Below, piece by piece: positions 29,329 to 37,732 of a stretch of DNA of 64,000 bases. The DNA is taken from NCBI RefSeq assembly GCF_003363015.1, contig NZ_QRAP01000005.1, positions 330,820-394,819 of the forward strand, in the 5' to 3' direction. The notes beneath the pieces were generated by a model. That model was not told the origin of the DNA. It saw only the letters and a list, made by a program, of their open reading frames with translations, and did no database searches. Every line of letters starts with the position of its first letter. The first letter of the stretch is position 1. Origin of the DNA: Enterobacillus tribolii (GTDB lineage Bacteria; Pseudomonadota; Gammaproteobacteria; Enterobacterales; Enterobacteriaceae). A program made the position numbers and the translations under genes.

Positions 29329-30912
29329 TTATACCTGCCTGATGGTTTCCCAGCTCAACCCGAAACGCGCCAGATATTTACGCAGACGATCGGCATCGTT
29401 GGGCTGTTTCTTTTGTTCGCGCGACACGGCGAACAGCGTGCGCCCGGCTTCCGACAAGCTGGAAGACGCCCGGCACACTTTCAGCACGCAGGCCAGTTGG
29501 CTGCGGTCAAACATATCCACGTCACCCACGATGGCCGGCAGTTCCGTTTCCTCTTCCTGCCAGTCCAGGCGCAGCCGCCGGATTTCTTCATCAACCAGTG
29601 CGGCATTAACGCGCCCGTTTTCCGCCAACGTCGCCATACGGGTTACGGACGCCCCCAGCTCGCGGAAGTTTCCCCGCCAGATGGCCTGCGCCGAACAGGC
29701 GAATTCCAGATAACGCTGGCGGGCGTCTTTATCAAAACGCACCAACGTCTGCTGCTCCTGCCCGTAGCGGTTCAGCTCGAACGCCAGGTTCGGCTCAATA
29801 TCCTCACGCCGCTCGGCCAGGCCCGGCAACGGAAACGTCCACATGTTGATACGCGCATACAGATCCTCACGGAAATGCCCCTGCGCCACCCAGTGCCGCA
29901 TGTCGCGGTGCGTACCGGCAATCAGTTGAAAATCGCTGCTCACTTCTTTATCCGACCCGTAAGGCAGAAAACGTTTTTCCTCAATGGCCTTCAGCAGCAT
30001 CGCCTGCTCATCCAACCCCAGCTCACCGATTTCATCCAGAAACAGTACCCCGCCGTCCGCCTCGCGCAACAACCCGGTACGCGCCTGCTGCGCGCCGGTA
30101 AACGCGCCCCTGACATGGCCGAACAGGGTCGACATCGCGTTATCTCCGCGCAGCGTGGCGCAGTTCACCTCAACGAAGCGGCCCCCGACCTGATGGCGGG
30201 ACTGTTTAAGCTGAAATATCCGCCGCGCCAGGAACGACTTGCCCGCCCCGGTCGGGCCGGTCAGCAGCATCGGCGCGCGGGAGCGCAGCGCCACCCGCTC
30301 AATCTGATCGATCAGCGCGTTAAACGTCGGATTGCGGGTGGCAATGCCCGCCTTAAGGAAGGCCACCGAGGACTGCCGCTCGCGTTGAAAACGGCTGGTC
30401 AGCGCCGTATAACGGCTCAGATCGAGATCGATGACGGAATAAGTCCCGGCCGGCGATGCCTTGTCCTCCTCCTCCTGGCGCCCCACCGGTGAGGTTTGCA
30501 GCAGGCTGGCGGGCAGGTAGCGCGCTTCGGTCAGCAGGAACCAGCAAATCTGCGCCACGTGCGTCCCGGTAGTGATGTGTACCAGATACTCTTCGTTTTC
30601 GGTGTCGAAAGGATAGCGGGTCGCGAAATCCAGAAAAGCGGAGTACACCACTTCGAAATCCCAGGGGTCGTGCAGTTCCACGGCGTGTAAACGCACCTCC
30701 GTGGCGGGAGAAACTTCCGCGATGTCTTCACAGAGCCTTTGCGCCATGCCCAAATCACGCGGCTGATGCAGCAGCTCCAGCCGGTCGACGGGCAGATCCG
30801 GCTGCTGGCACAGCCCTACCGTCGGCCGCCATTTGTTCCAGCGATTATTACGCTTACCCCGTCTGTCGAGCACCGTTCCCAGCACCCCGATCACCACCCT
30901 GCGTTTCGTCAT
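29329..30912 (-). CDS. rtcR: sigma54-dependent transcriptional activator RtcR (CARF + AAA+ + HTH)
   Basis: 527 aa, colinear with E. coli RtcR (GTVLD..G....RW.KWRPT..LCQQ...IDRLELLH; [14 protein letters not shown]; GAFTGA; ESE-type [17 protein letters not shown]). Divergent from an rtcB-containing operon. Confidence 0.9.
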
Positions 30913-31047
30913 GATTTATCCATAAATATAAAAGGCGAGATAATTTTATAATAAATCGTCTCCCGTCAGAATCCCACCTTACGACCAGACTATTTTTAAT
31001 CAATTATTTATCAATGAGATAAAAAATATTTCCGCTGTTTTTCAAAA

Positions 31048-31064
31048 CTGGCACGTCTCTGGCA
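31048..31064 (+). promoter_or_regulatory. candidate sigma54 (-24/-12) promoter for the rtcB operon
   Basis: cTGGCACgtctctGGCAat has the -24 GG (31050-51) and -12 GC (31062-63) with the canonical 10-bp spacing. One mismatch to the TTGC -12 element. Located between rtcR and the operon. Confidence 0.5.
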
Positions 31065-31163
31065 ATAGTAATAGCGTCCGCACGCTGGAACTTGCCGGGG
31101 TTCAGAACCCCGCCGGCGCACCAGGAACGGCACGGGCCGTTTTCCGGTGGTACGTTCCGCCAG

Positions 31164-31224
31164 CGGTAGGACTTCGCGATAAATACAGGATTGCAGCAGG
31201 GTTCGAGTCCCCGCGATCGCACCA
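31164..31224 (+). ncRNA. tRNA-like element (acceptor stem + T-arm + ACCA, no anticodon arm) in the rtc operon leader; Y-RNA/YrlA-like candidate
   Basis: 5' strand GCGGTAG (31163-31169) pairs 6 of 7 positions with CGATCGC (31214-31220), including one G-U wobble and one mismatch. T-stem CAGGG/CCCCG (4 of 5 positions pair) flanks the T-loop TTCGAGT (31202-31208). Discriminator A then CCA (31222-31224). A further hairpin GCCGGGG..CCCCGCCGGC lies upstream (31103-31126). Confidence 0.35.
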
Positions 31225-31432
31225 TACTTTCAATATGGGATTGAACACATAAACGTAAAAAAACTCCGCGTAACCGGGCAGTTAACGGTTACCGCACCGG
31301 GCAGCCGGCAGAGATGCCGGGCCACGGGTAAAACGTCAGCCAGCAGCAACATCGTCCGCTGACCTTTCCCCCGCGGCTTCGCACAGACGTCCGCTCCCCG
31401 GCGCGCAGGAGAAATACCGATGGAGAATCAAC

Positions 31433-32569
31433 ATGATGGCTAAAAAAATTACAATACGGAAAGGTCAGTTAGGTTTGCTGTTAAAAGACGGCGATTACAC
31501 GCAGATACTGGAAGCCGGCGAACACCGCCTGAGCTGGTTTAATACGCCGCAGCTTGAGGTTGTTAACCTCAGCGACAACGAGGTTACCGCCGGACTGGCG
31601 GAGCAACTGCGCCGCTATCAACCGGCGTGGGTTGAAAAATATTGCCTGCGCGCCGACCTGGGAGAAAACGAAGTCGGCCTGCGCTTCGAAGACGACGTGT
31701 TGCAGGAAATCCTGCCGCCCTCTTCGCGCCGCCTGTTCTGGAAAAACGGCGAAGGCCAGCGCATTGAACGCATCAGCACTGAGGCCGCCCGCGTGCCGGA
31801 CGCCATCGTCAGCGCGCTGTTGCAGCCGAAGCTGCGCAACCGCGCGGTAAAAGGCGCGGAAGGCGTTCTGCTGGTGCAGGTTCCGGCCTGGCACGCCGGC
31901 GTACTGAAGGTCGACGGCGTAACCCAGGACTTACTGGCGCCGGGCGTCAGCGGCTACTGGCGTTTCAACCACGTGGTGGAAGCCGACGTGGTGGATACCC
32001 GCCTGCAGGTGCTGGAAGTCAGCGGTCAGGAAATCCTGACGCGCGACAAGGTGAACCTGCGCCTGAACCTGGCGGCCAACTGGCGCTATCGCGACGTACT
32101 GCAGGCCTTCGCCCAGCTCACCAAGCCGGTCGATCACCTGTACCGCGAGTTACAGTTCGCCCTGCGCGAAGCGGTCGGCACCCGTTCGCTCGACGAGCTG
32201 CTCGAAAACAAGCAGATCATCGACGAGGTGGTCAGCGCCCAAGTCGCGGCGCGCATGGCGGAGTACGGCATCGACCTCGCTTCGCTGGGAGTGAAAGATA
32301 TCGTCCTGCCGGGCGACATGAAGACCATCCTGTCACGGTTGGTGGAAGCGGAAAAATCGGCACAGGCCAACGTCATCCGCCGCCGTGAAGAAACCGCGGC
32401 GACCCGTTCGCTGCTGAACACGGCGAAAGTGATGGAAAACAACCCGGTGGCGCTGCGTCTGAAAGAGCTGGAAACGCTGGAAAAAGTAGCGGAACGCATT
32501 GATAAAATCTCTGTTTTCGGCGGCCTGGATCAGGTGTTGCAGGGATTGATACAGATTAAAGGAGCATAA
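31433..32569 (+). CDS. SPFH/band-7 (slipin/HflC-like) domain protein
   Basis: 378 aa with a band-7 core (VDTRLQVLEVSGQEILTRDKVNLRLN...) and a C-terminal coiled-coil (LSRLVEAEKSAQANVIRRREE...). Sits between the sigma54 promoter and rtcB, ending 4 nt before rtcB. Confidence 0.7.
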   Translation: MMAKKITIRKGQLGLLLKDGDYTQILEAGEHRLSWFNTPQLEVVNLSDNEVTAGLAEQLRRYQPAWVEKYCLRADLGENEVGLRFEDDVLQEILPPSSRRLFWKNGEGQRIERISTEAARVPDAIVSALLQPKLRNRAVKGAEGVLLVQVPAWHAGVLKVDGVTQDLLAPGVSGYWRFNHVVEADVVDTRLQVLEVSGQEILTRDKVNLRLNLAANWRYRDVLQAFAQLTKPVDHLYRELQFALREAVGTRSLDELLENKQIIDEVVSAQVAARMAEYGIDLASLGVKDIVLPGDMKTILSRLVEAEKSAQANVIRRREETAATRSLLNTAKVMENNPVALRLKELETLEKVAERIDKISVFGGLDQVLQGLIQIKGA

Positions 32570-32573
32570 CAAA

Positions 32574-33800
32574 ATGAAAAATAACGATTACCAGATCATG
32601 ACGTCAGAAAACGCCGCCCCGGTGAAGATGTGGACCCAGGGCGTACCGGTGGACCCGGGAGCGCGCGATCAGTTGCTGAACACGGCGAAAATGCCGTTTA
32701 TCTTCCGCCATATGGCCGTGATGCCGGACGTGCATCTGGGTAAAGGATCGACCATCGGCAGCGTGATCCCAACGCGCGGGGCGATTATCCCCGCAGCGGT
32801 CGGCGTGGATATCGGCTGCGGAATGATCGCGGTGCGAACGTCGCTGAACGCCGCCGATCTGCCGGATAACCTGTACGGGATCCGCAGCGCGATCGAGCAG
32901 GCCGTTCCGCACGGACGTACCGTTAACCGCAGCGGACGCGATAAAGGCTCCTGGAACCGGCCGCCGGAAGCGGTGGACCGCCACTGGGCGTCGTTGCTGC
33001 CGGGCTTCAAGCGCCTGACCGATAAGTATCCGGACCTGCTGAAAACCAACAACTATCAGCACCTGGGAACGTTGGGAACCGGTAACCACTTTATCGAACT
33101 GTGTCTGGATGAACAGAATCAGGTATGGGTGATGCTGCACAGCGGATCGCGCGGCGTAGGTAACGCCATCGGCAACCTGTTCATTACGCTGGCGCAGGAA
33201 GACATGCACCAGCATATCGCCAACCTGCCGGACCGTAACCTGGCCTACTTCGAAGAAGGCAGCCGCCACTTTGACGACTATATCGAAGCGGTAAGCTGGG
33301 CGCAGGAATACGCGCGCCGTAACCGCGAAGTGATGATGCAGCACGTGCTGGAGGCGCTGGCGCGCGAAATTCCCAAGCCGTTCACCGCGGTACAGGAAGC
33401 CGTGAACTGCCACCATAACTACGTACAGCGCGAGCGTCACTTCGGTGAATCGGTGCTGGTAACGCGTAAAGGCGCGGTGTCGGCGCAAAAAGGCGAAATG
33501 GGGATTATCCCCGGTTCGATGGGTGCCAAAAGTTACATCGTGCGCGGGCTGGGTAACGAAGAGAGCTTCTGTTCCTGCAGCCACGGCGCGGGACGGGTAA
33601 TGAGCCGTACTGCGGCCAAAAAGCACTTCACGCTGGAAGACCAGAAACGCGCCACGGCACACGTGGAATGCCGTAAAGACAGCGACGTGATCGATGAAAT
33701 TCCGATGGCGTACAAAGACATCGACGCCGTAATGGCGGCGCAGTCTTCGCTGGTGGAAATCGTGCATACCCTGCGCCAGGTGGTGTGTGTGAAAGGATAA
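32574..33800 (+). CDS. rtcB: RNA-splicing ligase RtcB
   Basis: 408 aa, colinear with E. coli RtcB (TSENAAPVKMWTQGVPV; MPDVHLGKGSTIGSVIPT; GTGNHFIEL; IPGSMGAKSYIVRG; SCSHGAGRVMSR). Confidence 0.9.
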   Translation: MKNNDYQIMTSENAAPVKMWTQGVPVDPGARDQLLNTAKMPFIFRHMAVMPDVHLGKGSTIGSVIPTRGAIIPAAVGVDIGCGMIAVRTSLNAADLPDNLYGIRSAIEQAVPHGRTVNRSGRDKGSWNRPPEAVDRHWASLLPGFKRLTDKYPDLLKTNNYQHLGTLGTGNHFIELCLDEQNQVWVMLHSGSRGVGNAIGNLFITLAQEDMHQHIANLPDRNLAYFEEGSRHFDDYIEAVSWAQEYARRNREVMMQHVLEALAREIPKPFTAVQEAVNCHHNYVQRERHFGESVLVTRKGAVSAQKGEMGIIPGSMGAKSYIVRGLGNEESFCSCSHGAGRVMSRTAAKKHFTLEDQKRATAHVECRKDSDVIDEIPMAYKDIDAVMAAQSSLVEIVHTLRQVVCVKG

Positions 33801-33819
33801 AATCATTAAGGAAAGAGAA

Positions 33820-34611
33820 ATGGAATGGGAAAGCGGCGGCGTCAGCGCCGCCATGCGCACCCGGGTCACGGAGACCCTGCGCATACTGGAGCAAGAACAC
33901 AAGGTGCGGGTGCTTTATGCCTGCGAGTCAGGCAGCCGCGGCTGGGGGTTCGCCTCGCCGGACAGCGATTACGACGTACGCTTTATCTACGTCCACCAGC
34001 CGGAGTGGTATCTGCGCGTTGACGCGCCGCGCGACGTGATAGAGATGCCCATCGACGATGAGCTGGACGTCTGCGGCTGGGAGTTACGCAAAACGCTGGG
34101 CCTGCTCAAACGCGCCAACCCGACGCTGATGGAATGGCTGGACTCCCCCGTCGTCTATCAGCAGGAGAATGAAACCGCCGCCGCGCTCAAAGCGCTGGCG
34201 CCGGCCTATTTCTCCGGGCCGCGCGCCCGTTATCACTATTTGTCGATGGCGCGCAAAAACTTTCGCGGCTATTTGCAGGGCGAACAGGTACGGCTGAAAA
34301 AGTATTTCTACGTGCTGCGCCCCCTGCTGGCCGTGCGTTGGATAGAGGCCGGCAAAGGCGTACCGCCGATGCGCTTCGATAGCCTGATGGCGGGAACCGT
34401 CACAGACCCGGCGCTGCGGGCGGAAATCGACGATCTGCTGGCGCTGAAGCGCCGCTCAGGCGAAGCGCAGTACGGCGTCCGGCGTGAACGCATCCACGCG
34501 TTCATCCTGGATGCCCTGGAGGAAACGCGGAGCATACCGCTGCCGCACGATCGCGAGCGGCGTGATACGCACGAGCTGGATCGCTTACTGCACGACGTCG
34601 TGCTGGGGTAA
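33820..34611 (+). CDS. Pol-beta-superfamily nucleotidyltransferase (minimal NTase with helical C-domain)
   Basis: 263 aa with the NTase signature ESGSRGWGFASPDSDYDVRFI (GS...D.D). Occupies the position usually held by rtcA downstream of rtcB. Confidence 0.65.
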   Translation: MEWESGGVSAAMRTRVTETLRILEQEHKVRVLYACESGSRGWGFASPDSDYDVRFIYVHQPEWYLRVDAPRDVIEMPIDDELDVCGWELRKTLGLLKRANPTLMEWLDSPVVYQQENETAAALKALAPAYFSGPRARYHYLSMARKNFRGYLQGEQVRLKKYFYVLRPLLAVRWIEAGKGVPPMRFDSLMAGTVTDPALRAEIDDLLALKRRSGEAQYGVRRERIHAFILDALEETRSIPLPHDRERRDTHELDRLLHDVVLG

Positions 34612-34707: not shown

Positions 34708-35169
34708 TTGGTACGGCTTATGGCGCAAACTTCTGCCTGTTCCCCTGAGGACATTCCGTTAGGACGGCTTATCCACCAGGTCAATCAATATAAGGATCGT
34801 CTGCTGACGCAAATCCTGGCGGCTCAGGATATTACGGCCTCGCAGTTCAAAGTGCTGGCGTCCATCCACTTTGAGCACTGCCAGACGCCGGTTGAAATCA
34901 GCCGGTTACTGTCCATCGACGGCGGTGCAATGACCCGTCTGCTGGATCGTATGGTCAAGAAAGGATTGCTCAAGCGTCAGCCGGCCCCCGACGACAAGCG
35001 CAAAGTGCTGCTGAGCCTTACCGACTACAGCGAAGAGCTGTGTAATAACTGCCGCCATCAGATCGCGGCCGGAATGCATGACATTCTGACGGAACGTCTC
35101 TCGCAAGAGGAAGTCCTCCAGTTAAAAAGGCTGCTGTGGCGTTTGCTGCCCCATGAAGGGAAGGAGTAA
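34708..35169 (+). CDS. MarR-family transcriptional regulator
   Basis: 153 aa with a winged-HTH core (ITASQFKVLASIHFEHCQTPVEISRLLSIDGGAMTRLLDRMVKKGLLKR). Alternative start MAQTS at 34720. Confidence 0.7.
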   Translation: MVRLMAQTSACSPEDIPLGRLIHQVNQYKDRLLTQILAAQDITASQFKVLASIHFEHCQTPVEISRLLSIDGGAMTRLLDRMVKKGLLKRQPAPDDKRKVLLSLTDYSEELCNNCRHQIAAGMHDILTERLSQEEVLQLKRLLWRLLPHEGKE

Positions 35170-35184
35170 TCCTCCCCCGCATGT

Positions 35185-36588
35185 TTACGCCTTGAACGTC
35201 ATCCACGGACGCAGGCGCGCCACCCGCTGAATCAGTCCTGCTTCCTCCTGCGCATCGATAACCGGTCCAATCCGTTTATACGCCGCCGGCGCCTCCTCCA
35301 CCCGACGCTCTTCGCGCAGCGTCACGCAATGCCACGGCAGCGCGTCATCCGCCGTTGGGCGCAGCGCCCGCACAGCCTGACGGCGCATGCGGCGACCGGC
35401 GCCATGACTACAGGAATTCAGCCATTCCGCATTACCCAACCCGCTGACGACGTACGAATAATCCCCCATCGAGCCGGGGATCAGCGCCAAATCGCCCGCC
35501 GCCGCCGGCGTCGCGCCTTTGCGGTGGATATTCATCCCGCCTTCGCGCAGCACCACGTTATGCGGAACGTCCACCGTCAGACGGGAATCGTCCTGCTGAA
35601 AAACATCCGCCAGACACTGACGCACCATTTCCGCCAGCGCCACCCGGTTCAGCCAGGCATAGCGTGCGGCGGCGCCCATCGCCTGCAAATACTCATCGGC
35701 CAGAGCGCCCGTCAACCCGTACAAACCGGAAGCAGGATGTTTTTCTCCCGCCGGCCACTGGTTACGGGCGTTGTCCATCCAACGCTGGCCGACGTAAAAC
35801 CCGACGTCGCGTGAACCGCTGTGAATCATAATGACCACATCCCCTTCACGCAGCCCATACTGCCAGGCGGCGCGGCGTTCAAGAATGCCGTCCACCACCT
35901 GCAGCTCAACGAAATGATTCCCCGCGCCCGGCGTTCCCAGCGAAGGATCGCGCAGCACATCGCGCGCGGTCGTCGTCAGCGCCGGCGGTGCCCAGGCGGC
36001 CTTACCGCCGAAGTCCGTCAGCCCGATGCAGGCATCGACTTCACGTTGCAGACGATCGCCATCTGCCGACGCCCACAGCCCCTGCTTCAGCAAACGATCC
36101 AGGCAGGCCTGCGGCCCGTCGTCGAACAGCGCGCGAAACGCCGCGCCGGTCATCGGGATATCACGCCCGTTCTGCAACAACGCGTGCGTAAGCCTCCGGC
36201 ATACGTCCTCACGCCGCGTTTCGAGCTGCGCCAGCGTCAGGCCGGTCGTCAGCAAACGCATGCCGCAGTTGATGTCCGTGCCGATAGCCGCCGGAATCAC
36301 CATATCCGGCGTGGTTGCCACGATGCTGCCCACCGGCGCAATGGCGCCGGGATGGAAATCCGGCGTAGCGCAGGCTTTGCACACATGGCCTTCGCTGCCC
36401 GGTACGCGCACGGCGGCAAAGTTCATCAGTTGCGTCACCGCTTTTTCTTCCAGCGGCAGCGCAGCGGGCAACAGCACGCTGGCGGATACGCCGTCGGTGA
36501 TGCGGGTCAGGGATACAATGTCATTTACGCGGGATACACGGATCCCTTTGCGTAAAAACGCTTTCTCAATTCTTGAGATGGAATACAT
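35185..36588 (-). CDS. RtcB-family RNA ligase paralog (RtcB2-like, N-terminally extended)
   Basis: RtcB signatures are present (GTDINCGMRLL; GAGNHFVELQ; IPGSMGDYSYVV; SCSHGAGRRM). The start is uncertain, taken as ATG 36588 (MYSISR...). The ORF track extends to 36744. Confidence 0.7.
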   Translation of the reverse strand: MYSISRIEKAFLRKGIRVSRVNDIVSLTRITDGVSASVLLPAALPLEEKAVTQLMNFAAVRVPGSEGHVCKACATPDFHPGAIAPVGSIVATTPDMVIPAAIGTDINCGMRLLTTGLTLAQLETRREDVCRRLTHALLQNGRDIPMTGAAFRALFDDGPQACLDRLLKQGLWASADGDRLQREVDACIGLTDFGGKAAWAPPALTTTARDVLRDPSLGTPGAGNHFVELQVVDGILERRAAWQYGLREGDVVIMIHSGSRDVGFYVGQRWMDNARNQWPAGEKHPASGLYGLTGALADEYLQAMGAAARYAWLNRVALAEMVRQCLADVFQQDDSRLTVDVPHNVVLREGGMNIHRKGATPAAAGDLALIPGSMGDYSYVVSGLGNAEWLNSCSHGAGRRMRRQAVRALRPTADDALPWHCVTLREERRVEEAPAAYKRIGPVIDAQEEAGLIQRVARLRPWMTFKA

Positions 36589-36850
36589 CAGAAACTGCCT
36601 CTGAAAAAGACATAACAAAATCACCCCATGAAAACGGGGCATGTTGTCTTTCCTGTCAGCAGCATTACGGGGAAAGGATCGGCAGTGTGGCGGAAACCGT
36701 AGCGGAAAGCAAGCACCGGGCTTTTCCCCTTTTTCATCCCGCAATAACCGTCACGACAGAAACCACCGCCGGTATTTAATTTTTCCCCGCTTCCGGGGTT
36801 AGGATAAGGTCAGTTTCGGCACGGCCGATGTTAACGACGGAGAAACGGCG

Positions 36851-37732
36851 ATGGAGAAAATCGATTTACACATGCACTCCCACCACAGCGACGACGCTGA
36901 CCTGCCGGTGGACGATCTTATCGCCCGTTGCCGGGCCAACGGCATCGGCGTGCTGGCCGTCACCGATCACAACTCGGCGGCCTCCGTGCCGGAAGCGGCC
37001 CGGCACCACGGTAACGGTCTGACCGTCATCTCCGGCATCGAAATCGACTGCACCGTTGAGGGCACCAATTTTCATCTGCTGGGTTACGGATACACGCCCG
37101 GTGACGACTTCGCACGCGTTCACCGTAATTTCAACGCATTACAGGCATCGCTGGTACCGGAAAAACTCGCCAAACTGCGTGCGCTGGGTTTCTTGCTCGA
37201 TGAGGACGAACTGGCGCGGCTGGCCGGAGATCGTTTGCCGCAGGAAGAACAGATGGGTGAGGCGATCCTCAACGATGACCGCAACCGCGATCACGCCTTA
37301 TTGCTCCCCTACCGCAGCGGCGGCGCACGCGCGGACATGCCGCTGATTAACTTCTACTGGGATTTTTTCGGGCGCGGTAAGCCCTGCTACGTGCCGGTGA
37401 CCTATCCGGCGATGAGCGAGATGATCGCCTTGATCCGTGACCACGGCGGGCTGCCGGTCGTCGCCCACATCGGGGCCAACATCAAAGATGACTATGAGCG
37501 CACCCTCGGCGCCATGCTGGACGCAGGCGTGGCCGGTATTGAAGTCTTTTCCAGCTATCACGCGCCGGAACTGACGCAGCGCCTGTATGACTTCGCGGCG
37601 TCCAGAAATGCGCACGTCACCTGTGGCAGCGATTTCCACGGACGTAACAAACCGAAAATCGAAGTTGGTCAGTGCAGCTACAGCGCGTCGCAGTATGCCG
37701 CCGTGCGGCGGTTCGTCGACGCCGTGGCCTGA
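36851..37732 (+). CDS. PHP-domain phosphoesterase (TrpH/YciV-like)
   Basis: 293 aa with the PHP N-terminal metal motif (IDLHMHSHHSD...LAVTDHN) and downstream His/Asp ligands. Divergent from the RtcB paralog. Confidence 0.75.
   Translation: MEKIDLHMHSHHSDDADLPVDDLIARCRANGIGVLAVTDHNSAASVPEAARHHGNGLTVISGIEIDCTVEGTNFHLLGYGYTPGDDFARVHRNFNALQASLVPEKLAKLRALGFLLDEDELARLAGDRLPQEEQMGEAILNDDRNRDHALLLPYRSGGARADMPLINFYWDFFGRGKPCYVPVTYPAMSEMIALIRDHGGLPVVAHIGANIKDDYERTLGAMLDAGVAGIEVFSSYHAPELTQRLYDFAASRNAHVTCGSDFHGRNKPKIEVGQCSYSASQYAAVRRFVDAVA

Follow-up and report, generated by a model that had tools for sequence, protein, structure and literature searches.

A conserved reduced tRNA-like unit in the structured leader of a Band-7/RtcB/RlaP operon of Enterobacillus tribolii

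Bacterial RtcB repair operons are induced by damaged tRNAs. The element described here, a tRNA-like unit in the leader of such an operon in Enterobacillus tribolii, precedes a gene of the SPFH/Band-7 family, otherwise known as membrane scaffolds, whose product would here be a cytosolic accessory part. The stretch of DNA analysed comprises 64,000 nucleotides of contig NZ_QRAP01000005.1 (positions 330,820 to 394,819); we refer to it as the window and use its numbering throughout. An earlier reading of the letters alone (the sequence-only reading) had singled out in it a T-loop, an acceptor helix and an encoded ACCA.

The closest described RNA is 'b7a-tRNA', found next to Band-7 and RtcB genes and predicted by Burroughs and Aravind (2016), as described in a preprint by Wang et al. 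(bioRxiv 10.1101/312249). These authors propose that it is functionally redundant with YrlA, and state that, as of 2018, it lacked experimental validation; we found no later experimental work on b7a-tRNA in the literature searched. YrlA itself is a tRNA mimic with tRNA-type modifications, which in M. smegmatis is cleaved by RNase P and receives CCA (PMC4201824). Hughes et al. (2020) suggested that its tRNA-like domain, which is left uncleaved by a DNA-damage-induced nuclease, might competitively inhibit an anticodon nuclease (PMC7790460). As for the proteins of such operons, according to a 2025 preprint RlaP extends damaged RNAs at the 3'-OH by one or two nucleotides (PMC12776372), and the P. 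aeruginosa SPFH protein PaFlo8 is embedded in an rtc locus (2026 paper).

From a comparison with relatives, we conclude that positions 31176-31224 are very probably a conserved, reduced tRNA-like unit, the enterobacterial form of the Band-7-associated tRNA-like RNA. The module belongs to an already predicted kind of RNA; here it takes the form of a reduced variant within a large structured leader.

Conservation and anatomy of the tRNA-like unit

We collected 160 loci encoding Band-7 homologues, from the genomes of 80 species of Gamma- and Betaproteobacteria and from 80 metagenome contigs (L001-L160), and took from them 125 non-redundant leaders, delimited by the promoter and the Band-7 start. 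The sequence-only reading had let its case depend on the motif not being absent from orthologous leaders, and we find it in every one: the T-arm motif RGGTTCRAnYCY stands at a fixed distance from the promoter in 125/125. Enterobacterales have one copy, +125 to +150 from the promoter; two are usual in Pseudomonas and Betaproteobacteria, the first at +160 to +190 and the second about 72 nucleotides further on. Wherever upstream sequence suffices across the 160 loci, the unit lies upstream of the Band-7 gene. The motif and its stem match 220 sites in the 2.23 Mb of fetched DNA (both strands counted), of which 76 are genuine tRNAs, 138 lie in these leaders and 6 are elsewhere.

In the window, the letters are where the sequence-only reading had put them: GGTTCGAGTCC occupies 31200-31210 and CCGCGATCGC-A-CCA occupies 31211-31224, both on the + strand. 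On the evidence of the window alone, these motifs are not above chance; with 0.48 occurrences of the 11-nucleotide T-loop motif expected in 64 kb, one is observed, and 38 of 100 shuffles contain it at least once. ARAGORN calls no tRNA in the window, where Rfam likewise gives nothing at gathering score and no match to its tRNA model at E<=10; the four-arm cloverleaf, 7-nucleotide anticodon loop and tRNA-finder call of a canonical tRNA are absent from the unit. Rfam does return weak mascRNA-type matches at 31159-31220 (E=2.6) and 31074-31119 (E=4.1), with a best mascRNA-menRNA score of 16.3 bits against a gathering score of 42.5 bits. Folding of the RNA, which had been proposed as a check, gave no signal: folding energies do not differ from those of shuffled sequences (z -0.6 to +0.8), and thermodynamic folding is uninformative here. 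It is the comparison with relatives that makes the T-arm real. A covariance-model search had also been proposed and, silent as Rfam is, a model made from ten enterobacterial relatives with the window excluded (R1) has a sole significant match in the window on either strand, 31173-31224, with 26 bits, E=2.8e-4 and the full model length (next best E=0.1). The pairs of the unit are those that R1 itself selects.

Compensatory changes, for which the sequence-only reading had looked to a comparative alignment, are found in both the T-stem, which covaries across relatives, and the closing stem. At the same place, the closing stem of other lineages reads GCGAA:UUCGC, GGCGAA:UUCGCC, UGCGAAG:CUUCGCA or GCGAAU:AUUCGC, and further versions are GGAAA:UUUCU, GGUG:CACC and GAUG:CAUC. 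MAFFT alignments of the short units misregistered this stem and were replaced by a covariance model from a well-aligned subgroup; in the resulting model-fitted alignment 96% of cells are paired (shuffles 80%, slid controls 33-55%), and compensatory changes occur in 11 of the 13 pairs. For the closing stem, the Fisher combined p is 0.0015 over 16 sequences that are not all independent lineages; helix statistics for single sequences are weak (P 0.015 to 1.0), and only the combined and positional evidence is meaningful. The mini hairpin covaries by eye in Enterobacterales (AAU/AUU, GGC/GCC, AAAA/UUUU, UAA/UUA) and in Betaproteobacteria (GCA/UGC, GCC/GGC, CUC/GAG, GAC/GUC).

The T-arm of the unit carries the canonical features G53-C61, U54, U55, C56, R57 and A58 (GGGUUCGAGUCCC at 31199-31211), and its T-loop positions are invariant in an alignment of 22 sequences. 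By analogy with tRNA, the terminal GG of the mini hairpin would sit where G18-G19 of the D-loop dock on the T-loop, and, as its sequence reads, the unit keeps the acceptor/T 'top half' and the elbow of tRNA. Of the tRNA-like module drawn by the sequence-only reading, the T-arm, a closing acceptor-like stem, an NCC(A) tail and the lack of an anticodon arm stand, whereas the acceptor helix falls. That helix joined GCGGTAG (31163-31169) to CGATCGC (31214-31220), with 6/7 pairs possible. Its strands (31163-69:31214-20) are paired in 43-50% of relatives, and the first three bases of GCGGUAG belong to the covarying helix P1; we replaced GCGGUAG as acceptor 5' strand by GCGAU (31176-80), which pairs with AUCGC (31216-20). 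The encoded ACCA is present, but in full it is specific to this genome: long-form relatives mostly keep A-CC (ACCU, CACC, AACCA), Proteus has CACC-AAAA-CCA, and the short forms have nothing comparable.

The closing stem precedes the A-CCA tail, and a conserved hairpin, 31229-31245, follows it. Of 79 enteric leaders, 95% have a hairpin of 5 bp or more directly 3' of the unit (shuffles: 49%), and 28 different sequences make up these stems. In the minimum-free-energy fold, the window has an alternative of its own, CCAUA (31222-26) with UAUGG (31234-38), which would sequester the CCA; we rejected it as the conserved post-unit hairpin, the homologue of which is 31229-45.

The forms taken in relatives place the unit. 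In its position Pseudomonas has two abutting cloverleaves, and Betaproteobacteria have a 43-49-nucleotide 'unit 1' followed by a cloverleaf, 'unit 2'; in unit 1 the acceptor stem has 6-7 bp and the mini D-hairpin a UGGU loop, a T-arm is present and an anticodon arm absent. ARAGORN and the Rfam tRNA model call many of the Pseudomonas and Betaproteobacterial cloverleaves tRNAs, while ARAGORN finds no tRNA in the Enterobacterales loci L001-L015. The 'anticodon' loops of these cloverleaves are 2- or 4-nucleotide oddities, UUCG/GNRA tetraloops or arbitrary triplets, and no CCA is encoded; judged by such features, cloverleaves at this position are not decoding tRNAs. In size and layout the window unit equals unit 1, and like unit 1 it follows P2. 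Betaproteobacterial unit 1 is matched by the enterobacterial model from end to end, unit 2 mostly at the T-arm only, and the flanking leader domains are collinear between enterics and Pseudomonas or Betaproteobacteria. Because its positional orthologues in the latter two groups do resemble cloverleaf tRNA, we regard the window unit as a reduced derivative. Reduction goes further in Klebsiella, Citrobacter and Phytobacter, where closing stem and mini hairpin are deleted and only GGGUUCGAUUCCC is left, sometimes with just three G-C pairs. Since these short forms retain only the T-arm, the T-arm is the invariant core of the family.

Some further features of the relatives deserve mention. In three Pseudomonas loci with a single unit (L016, L043, L064) the cloverleaf looks recombinant, its 5' half being unit-1-like (GGCUCGGUAGCUCAG...) and its 3' half unit-2-like (...GCGGGUUCGAUUCCCGCUCGAA), which suggests unit loss by recombination between tandem copies. 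In short-form leaders (L002, L004, L008, L009, L083, L086, L101, L113, L126) the UCAUU/UCACU that follows the T-arm has two possible pairing partners: GAUGA/AGUGG upstream, within a GUCA-GCCGA-UGAC hairpin, and AAUGA/AGUGA downstream, in the post-unit hairpin. Both pairings co-vary in L004, and a structural switch is therefore possible. The motif CCCGCCGGUG occurs twice on the same strand in L017, L022, L031 and other Pseudomonas and Betaproteobacterial leaders, once as the P2 5' strand in the 5' domain and a second time immediately 3' of the post-unit hairpin (GCAGUACCCGCCGGUGCGG). Some Betaproteobacteria have a further conserved tRNA-like element between Band-7 and RtcB, on which ARAGORN makes no call. 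It reads GGCGCGCG...GCGGGUUCGAGUCCCGC-CGUGCCC-A-CCA, with a long insert and an encoded ACCA (L030:5280-5400, L040:2870-2990, L049:5260-5380, L073:5290-5410, L077:5285-5400), and it may be a YrlA-like RNA.

The structured leader, its partner gene and the locus

The sequence-only reading had considered a free-standing tRNA mimic. We find instead that the unit is one domain of a larger, covariation-supported leader of ~350 nucleotides, made up of a three-way junction, the unit, hairpins and a long 3' hairpin. RNAalifold, run on a MAFFT alignment of 36 non-redundant enterobacterial leaders and with one helix added by inspection, gives a consensus of 45 pairs in 8 helices, of which 38 pairs show compensatory changes. 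Pairing reaches 94.3% of cells, compared with 82.4% for column shuffles (0/500 reach the observed value) and 38-50% for slid partners. The helices P1, H1 and P2/H2 form the three-way junction of the 5' domain (31083-31165). P2 covaries family-wide, as CGGC.C/G.GUUCCG in enterics and CGGU.C/G.AUGCCG in Pseudomonas and Betaproteobacteria, with one exception in 111 leaders. The Shine-Dalgarno sequence and the start codon lie outside the conserved helices, and no intrinsic terminator is found on the + strand between 30850 and 31500.

Two candidates within the 5' domain were rejected. A second tRNA-like unit at 31074-31123, made up of a weak mascRNA match and an ACCA, is H1 and the P2 5' strand of the three-way junction: the mascRNA-type match at 31074-31119 relies on a pairing that is unconserved in relatives (alignment, by eye), and this first 'ACCA' (31120-23) is only the junction of P2 and H2. 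A CGCUGG:CCGGCG pairing was replaced, on covariation, by P1 (CCAGCG, 31160-65) and P2.

The first gene of the operon encodes the Band-7 protein, on which the sequence-only reading was silent. In the operon comparison, Band-7 is the sole invariant neighbour of the leader, since RtcB, RlaP or RtcR is each absent somewhere. Leader, Band-7 and RlaP occur without RtcB in Brenneria, Lonsdalea, K. oxytoca and others (L001, L002, L003, L005, L008, L009, L012), leader, Band-7 and RtcB occur without RlaP in Proteus (L013-L015), and Burkholderiales loci that have neither RtcR nor the sigma54 promoter retain the leader domains and the units. A PDB sequence search identifies a stomatin-type SPFH oligomerisation domain in the Band-7 protein, in which, by eye only, no hydrophobic membrane segment is seen. 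Its N-terminal ~190 residues, where SPFH relatives have a membrane anchor, are confidently predicted by AlphaFold to be beta-rich; in a Foldseek search of the PDB with the AlphaFold model only the SPFH part was matched. The protein is 99% identical to the Enterobacillus tribolii cluster.

The same Burkholderiales loci have 2-10 canonical tRNA genes directly upstream of the leader, on the same strand and ~1-2 kb before Band-7. The arrays include Asp, Phe, Arg, Pro, His, Glu, Lys, Leu and Gln tRNAs (L024, L042, L045-L048, L061, L070, L033, L038), and the repair operon looks fused to a tRNA operon. A Band-7 protein of ~520 residues with a duplicated N-domain is found in Xenorhabdus, Snodgrassella, Gilliamella, a Providencia metagenome-assembled genome and B. 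pyrrocinia (P0001, P0003, P0005; L020, L039, L054, L055, L062).

The features of the locus are collected in Table 1. The placement of the tRNA-like unit in the leader of a sigma54 rtc-type operon holds, with the promoter element at 31049-31064 and a divergent RtcR that has both of its domains; the -24/-12 element is found by sequence comparison upstream of most homologous leaders, its activity is predicted, and transcription would start near 31075. The operon of Band-7, RtcB and RlaP spans 31433-34611 (+), and 209 nucleotides separate the tRNA-like unit from the Band-7 ATG. The statement that there is no Rsr gene also stands, for no Pfam match to TROVE was obtained in the 17 open reading frames scanned (~20.8-41.3 kb of the window). 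In the same scan the neighbouring genes appear to be ordinary chromosomal ones, none of them an integrase.

Table 1. Positions (in window numbering) of the tRNA-like unit, the helices of the leader and the genes of the locus
Feature	Position	Strand	Details
rtcR, divergent	29329-30912	-	Pfam RtcR 8e-84 (RtcR/CARF), Sigma54_activat 5e-50
sigma54-type promoter, TGGCACGTCTCTGGCA	31049-31064	+	TGGCACG-N4-TGGCA; -24 GG 31050-51, -12 GC 31062-63
Structured leader, ~350-360 nucleotides	31075-31432	+	Between predicted start and Band-7 ATG
P1	31083-88 with 31160-65	+	85% paired, compensatory changes
H1 hairpin	31094-31100 with 31108-13	+	Loop UUCAGAA; 97% paired, compensatory changes
P2	31114-19 with 31152-59	+	UU bulge; 98% paired, compensatory changes
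H2 hairpin, closed by P2	31124-30 with 31138-45	+	99% paired, compensatory changes
tRNA-like unit, no anticodon arm, ~45-49 nucleotides	31176-31224	+	Covariance model R1 and comparison with relatives
Closing stem, 5 bp, GCGAU:AUCGC	G31176-U31180 with A31216-C31220	+	
Mini D-like hairpin	A31182-U31184 with A31190-U31192	+	Loop ACAGG, GG end 31188-89
T-stem	C31197-G31201 with C31209-G31213	+	A31198/C31212 mismatch
T-loop UUCGAGU	31202-08	+	
Tail A-C-C-A	31221-31224	+	Two-nucleotide spacer precedes
Hairpin after unit, UUCAAU-AUGGG-AUUGAA	31229-31245	+	Relatives: UUCAUU-CUCCC-AAUGAA and similar
3' domain, long irregular hairpin	31300-31332 with 31366-31398	+	Three helices 93-97% paired; 18/20 pairs compensatory
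Shine-Dalgarno GGAG	31422-25	+	Outside conserved helices
Band-7/SPFH (slipin) protein, 378 residues, first operon gene	31433-32569	+	Pfam Band_7 7e-29
RtcB RNA ligase	32574-33800	+	Pfam RtcB 1.6e-132
RlaP nucleotidyltransferase	33820-34611	+	Pfam RlaP 2.2e-100

Just downstream of the operon and convergent with it lies a second, divergent RtcB paralogue (35185-36744, - strand), which has 519 residues, a TTG start and ~31% identity to the first. It is flanked by a MarR-family gene (34708-35169) and a PHP-domain gene (36851-37732). Opposite the promoter and the tRNA-like unit there is an open reading frame of 73 residues (31004-31225, - strand) with no Pfam match, which is most likely spurious.

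Possible roles of the leader RNA

We hypothesize that the leader appears only upon firing of the sigma54 promoter by RtcR, ahead of Band-7, RtcB and RlaP on one transcript, and that the leader, or a processed piece of it, would serve a soluble Band-7/SPFH oligomer as RNA cofactor or handle. Contact with Band-7 would centre on the invariant T-arm and, much as Y RNA does for Ro60, the RNA would organise RtcB and RlaP on damaged tRNA-like substrates or target them there. The acceptor/T minihelix and A-CC tail of long forms may also be a handle for tRNA-processing enzymes such as RNase P. That a Band-7-centred repair particle has the leader as its RNA component, with the binding, processing and repair role this would entail, seems to us plausible but somewhat short of an even bet. 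Taken as an overall best explanation, the identity of the unit together with a Band-7 cofactor mechanism has, in our judgement, about an even chance of being right.

Several points weigh against this explanation. Expression, processing and binding of the leader are what we infer. The closing stem is short, and a position-restricted shuffle of the window gives it P=0.09; the best pair statistics come from a model-fitted alignment, which leans toward structure; and the A31198/C31212 mismatch keeps thermodynamic folding of the window from favouring the T-arm. In leaders of the Klebsiella/Citrobacter type, decay of the unit has left a T-arm, at the extreme with 3 G-C pairs; conservation in short forms falls short of 'tRNA mimicry', and the T-loop could instead serve inside the leader as a tertiary module. 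On the protein side, the fold of the Band-7 N-domain matched no RNA-binding family, and the number of tRNA-like units does not track the duplication of that domain.

Among the alternatives, the leader might be an uncleavable tRNA decoy or competitive inhibitor, overproduced when RtcR fires, which would soak up toxins or nucleases that recognise the elbow or acceptor and would protect real tRNAs during repair by RtcB and RlaP. We consider this unlikely. The same idea was raised for YrlA (PMC7790460), and leader RNA would be the first thing transcribed after induction. The anticodon loop, absent here and a UUCG/GNRA tetraloop or an arbitrary loop in cloverleaf relatives, would leave such an RNA immune to anticodon nucleases, and it also makes a decoy for those nucleases, along the lines of the sequence-only reading, unlikely as stated. 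The T-arm hairpin of short-form Enterobacteriaceae is, however, too little to mimic the tRNA body for most toxins, and a decoy needs neither the conserved 5' and 3' leader domains nor a strict linkage to Band-7 rather than to RtcB; one leader per mRNA would moreover be a poor sponge beside the cellular tRNA pool. The leader might also hold a cis-acting signal for processing or stability, its minihelix and A-CC(A) recruiting tRNA maturation (RNase P acting 5' of G31176, and trimming from the 3' side as far as the tail or hairpin). Cleavage of the leader would then determine where the Band-7-rtcB-rlaP mRNA begins and how long it lives, and a small RNA might be released. A closing stem on a T-stem, a T-loop, a D-like loop and a CC tail are the kind of features that RNase P recognises. 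In the unit the closing stem is stacked on the T-stem, the T-loop is canonical and the D-like loop ends in GG, and most long forms keep an A-CC tail that is single-stranded. The cleavage and CCA addition undergone by M. smegmatis YrlA (PMC4201824) are a precedent; in RtcR-less Burkholderiales the units lie directly downstream of genuine tRNA arrays on the same strand, where processing is routine, and those of Pseudomonas abut like the genes of a tRNA operon. Such a signal is nevertheless hard to reconcile with short forms that have no closing stem and with Pseudomonas and Betaproteobacterial units that have no CC(A). A 5-bp stem on a mismatched 5-bp T-stem would be a weak RNase P substrate, and the other conserved domains and the Band-7 linkage would be left unexplained. 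As an explanation in its own right we hold it improbable, though it is compatible with the Band-7 cofactor mechanism as a sub-step.

T-loops are common as tertiary modules in riboswitches, RNase P RNA and T-boxes, and the leader might correspondingly be a cis-regulatory sensor, riboswitch- or T-box-like, that senses for instance damaged tRNA or tRNA halves and tunes the operon, with the T-loop as an internal docking module. A large multi-domain structured RNA between promoter and first gene fits this, as do the alternative UCAUU pairings (GAUGA/AAUGA) of the short forms. The + strand of the leader has no intrinsic terminator, however, the sites of translation initiation stand apart from the conserved structure, no Rfam family matches, and the full cloverleaves of relatives point to tRNA ancestry rather than to a generic T-loop; we rate a sensor as distinctly improbable. 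A T-arm with an acceptor 3' strand and CCA is also what an integration scar looks like, and a motif that is not above chance within the window, with the tRNA finder and Rfam silent, could be an accident or the functionless remnant of a dead tRNA 3' end, such as an att-site scar. The fixed position in 125/125 Gamma- and Betaproteobacterial leaders, the compensatory changes in T-stem and closing stem, the independent model at E=2.8e-4 and the ordinary, integrase-free surroundings leave this next to no likelihood, and we regard it as effectively refuted by the comparative data.

Returning to the Band-7 cofactor mechanism, a further-reaching reading, which we put forward tentatively and consider rather doubtful, is that the unit is the most visible module of an undescribed class of multi-domain RNAs of 300-550 nucleotides in Gamma- and Betaproteobacteria, with the T-arm as universal core, which would assemble with a soluble SPFH/Band-7 cage into an inducible repair ribonucleoprotein and be a second, independent bacterial counterpart of Ro-Y RNA. 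If this were true, the series from two cloverleaves through mini-tRNA plus cloverleaf and mini-tRNA to a bare T-arm would show which part of tRNA the particle needs. The locus offers a concrete, widely conserved candidate RNA partner for Band-7, for which the natural deletion series points to a likely contact, the T-arm, and exact coordinates and a secondary-structure model are now to hand for direct tests. Reduced forms are missed by tRNA finders and Rfam throughout the sampled Enterobacterales (Klebsiella, Citrobacter, Proteus, Providencia, Erwinia, Brenneria), and the family is therefore probably under-annotated.

Comparison with described systems

Like b7a-tRNA, the window unit is encoded directly ahead of a Band-7/SPFH gene in an RtcB-type repair operon, and its T-arm is canonical. 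It occupies a position orthologous to that of the Pseudomonas and Betaproteobacterial units that ARAGORN and Rfam call tRNAs, and the role proposed for it, like that for b7a-tRNA, is to partner Band-7 as Y RNA partners Ro. It departs from the strong cloverleaf resemblance of b7a-tRNA in having no anticodon arm and a vestigial D-arm and in being missed by tRNA finders; what is added here is the placing of the unit inside a larger covarying leader. The parallel with YrlA drawn by the sequence-only reading survives as an analogy, the direct relative being the Band-7-associated tRNA-like RNA. Both are tRNA mimics with a conserved T/D core in an RNA-repair operon controlled by RtcR and sigma54, and YrlA is regarded as a cofactor of a scaffold protein that forms rings or cages, as we propose for the leader. 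YrlA, by definition, lies next to an rsr gene and has, where tRNA carries its anticodon stem, a Ro60-binding stem made by its 5' and 3' ends; a stem of the Ro-binding type is not evident around the unit in the consensus structure (no YrlA model was scored), and the partner gene is Band-7, with no Rsr among the flanking frames scanned.

With mascRNA (MALAT1), the tRNA-like domain of tmRNA and armless mitochondrial tRNAs, the unit shares an acceptor-T coaxial stack and elbow that are kept while the anticodon arm is dropped. It differs from them in showing no homology, a sub-gathering score and a closing stem of 5 bp versus 7, and in lying in an mRNA leader rather than at a 3' end. The locus as a whole resembles the E. 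coli-type rtcR-rtcBA in its divergent RtcR (CARF and AAA+ sigma54 activator), its sigma54 promoter and its RtcB operon. Unlike that system, it has Band-7 first and RlaP in place of RtcA, and its leader has no match (blastn) in 5,426 complete E. coli genomes.

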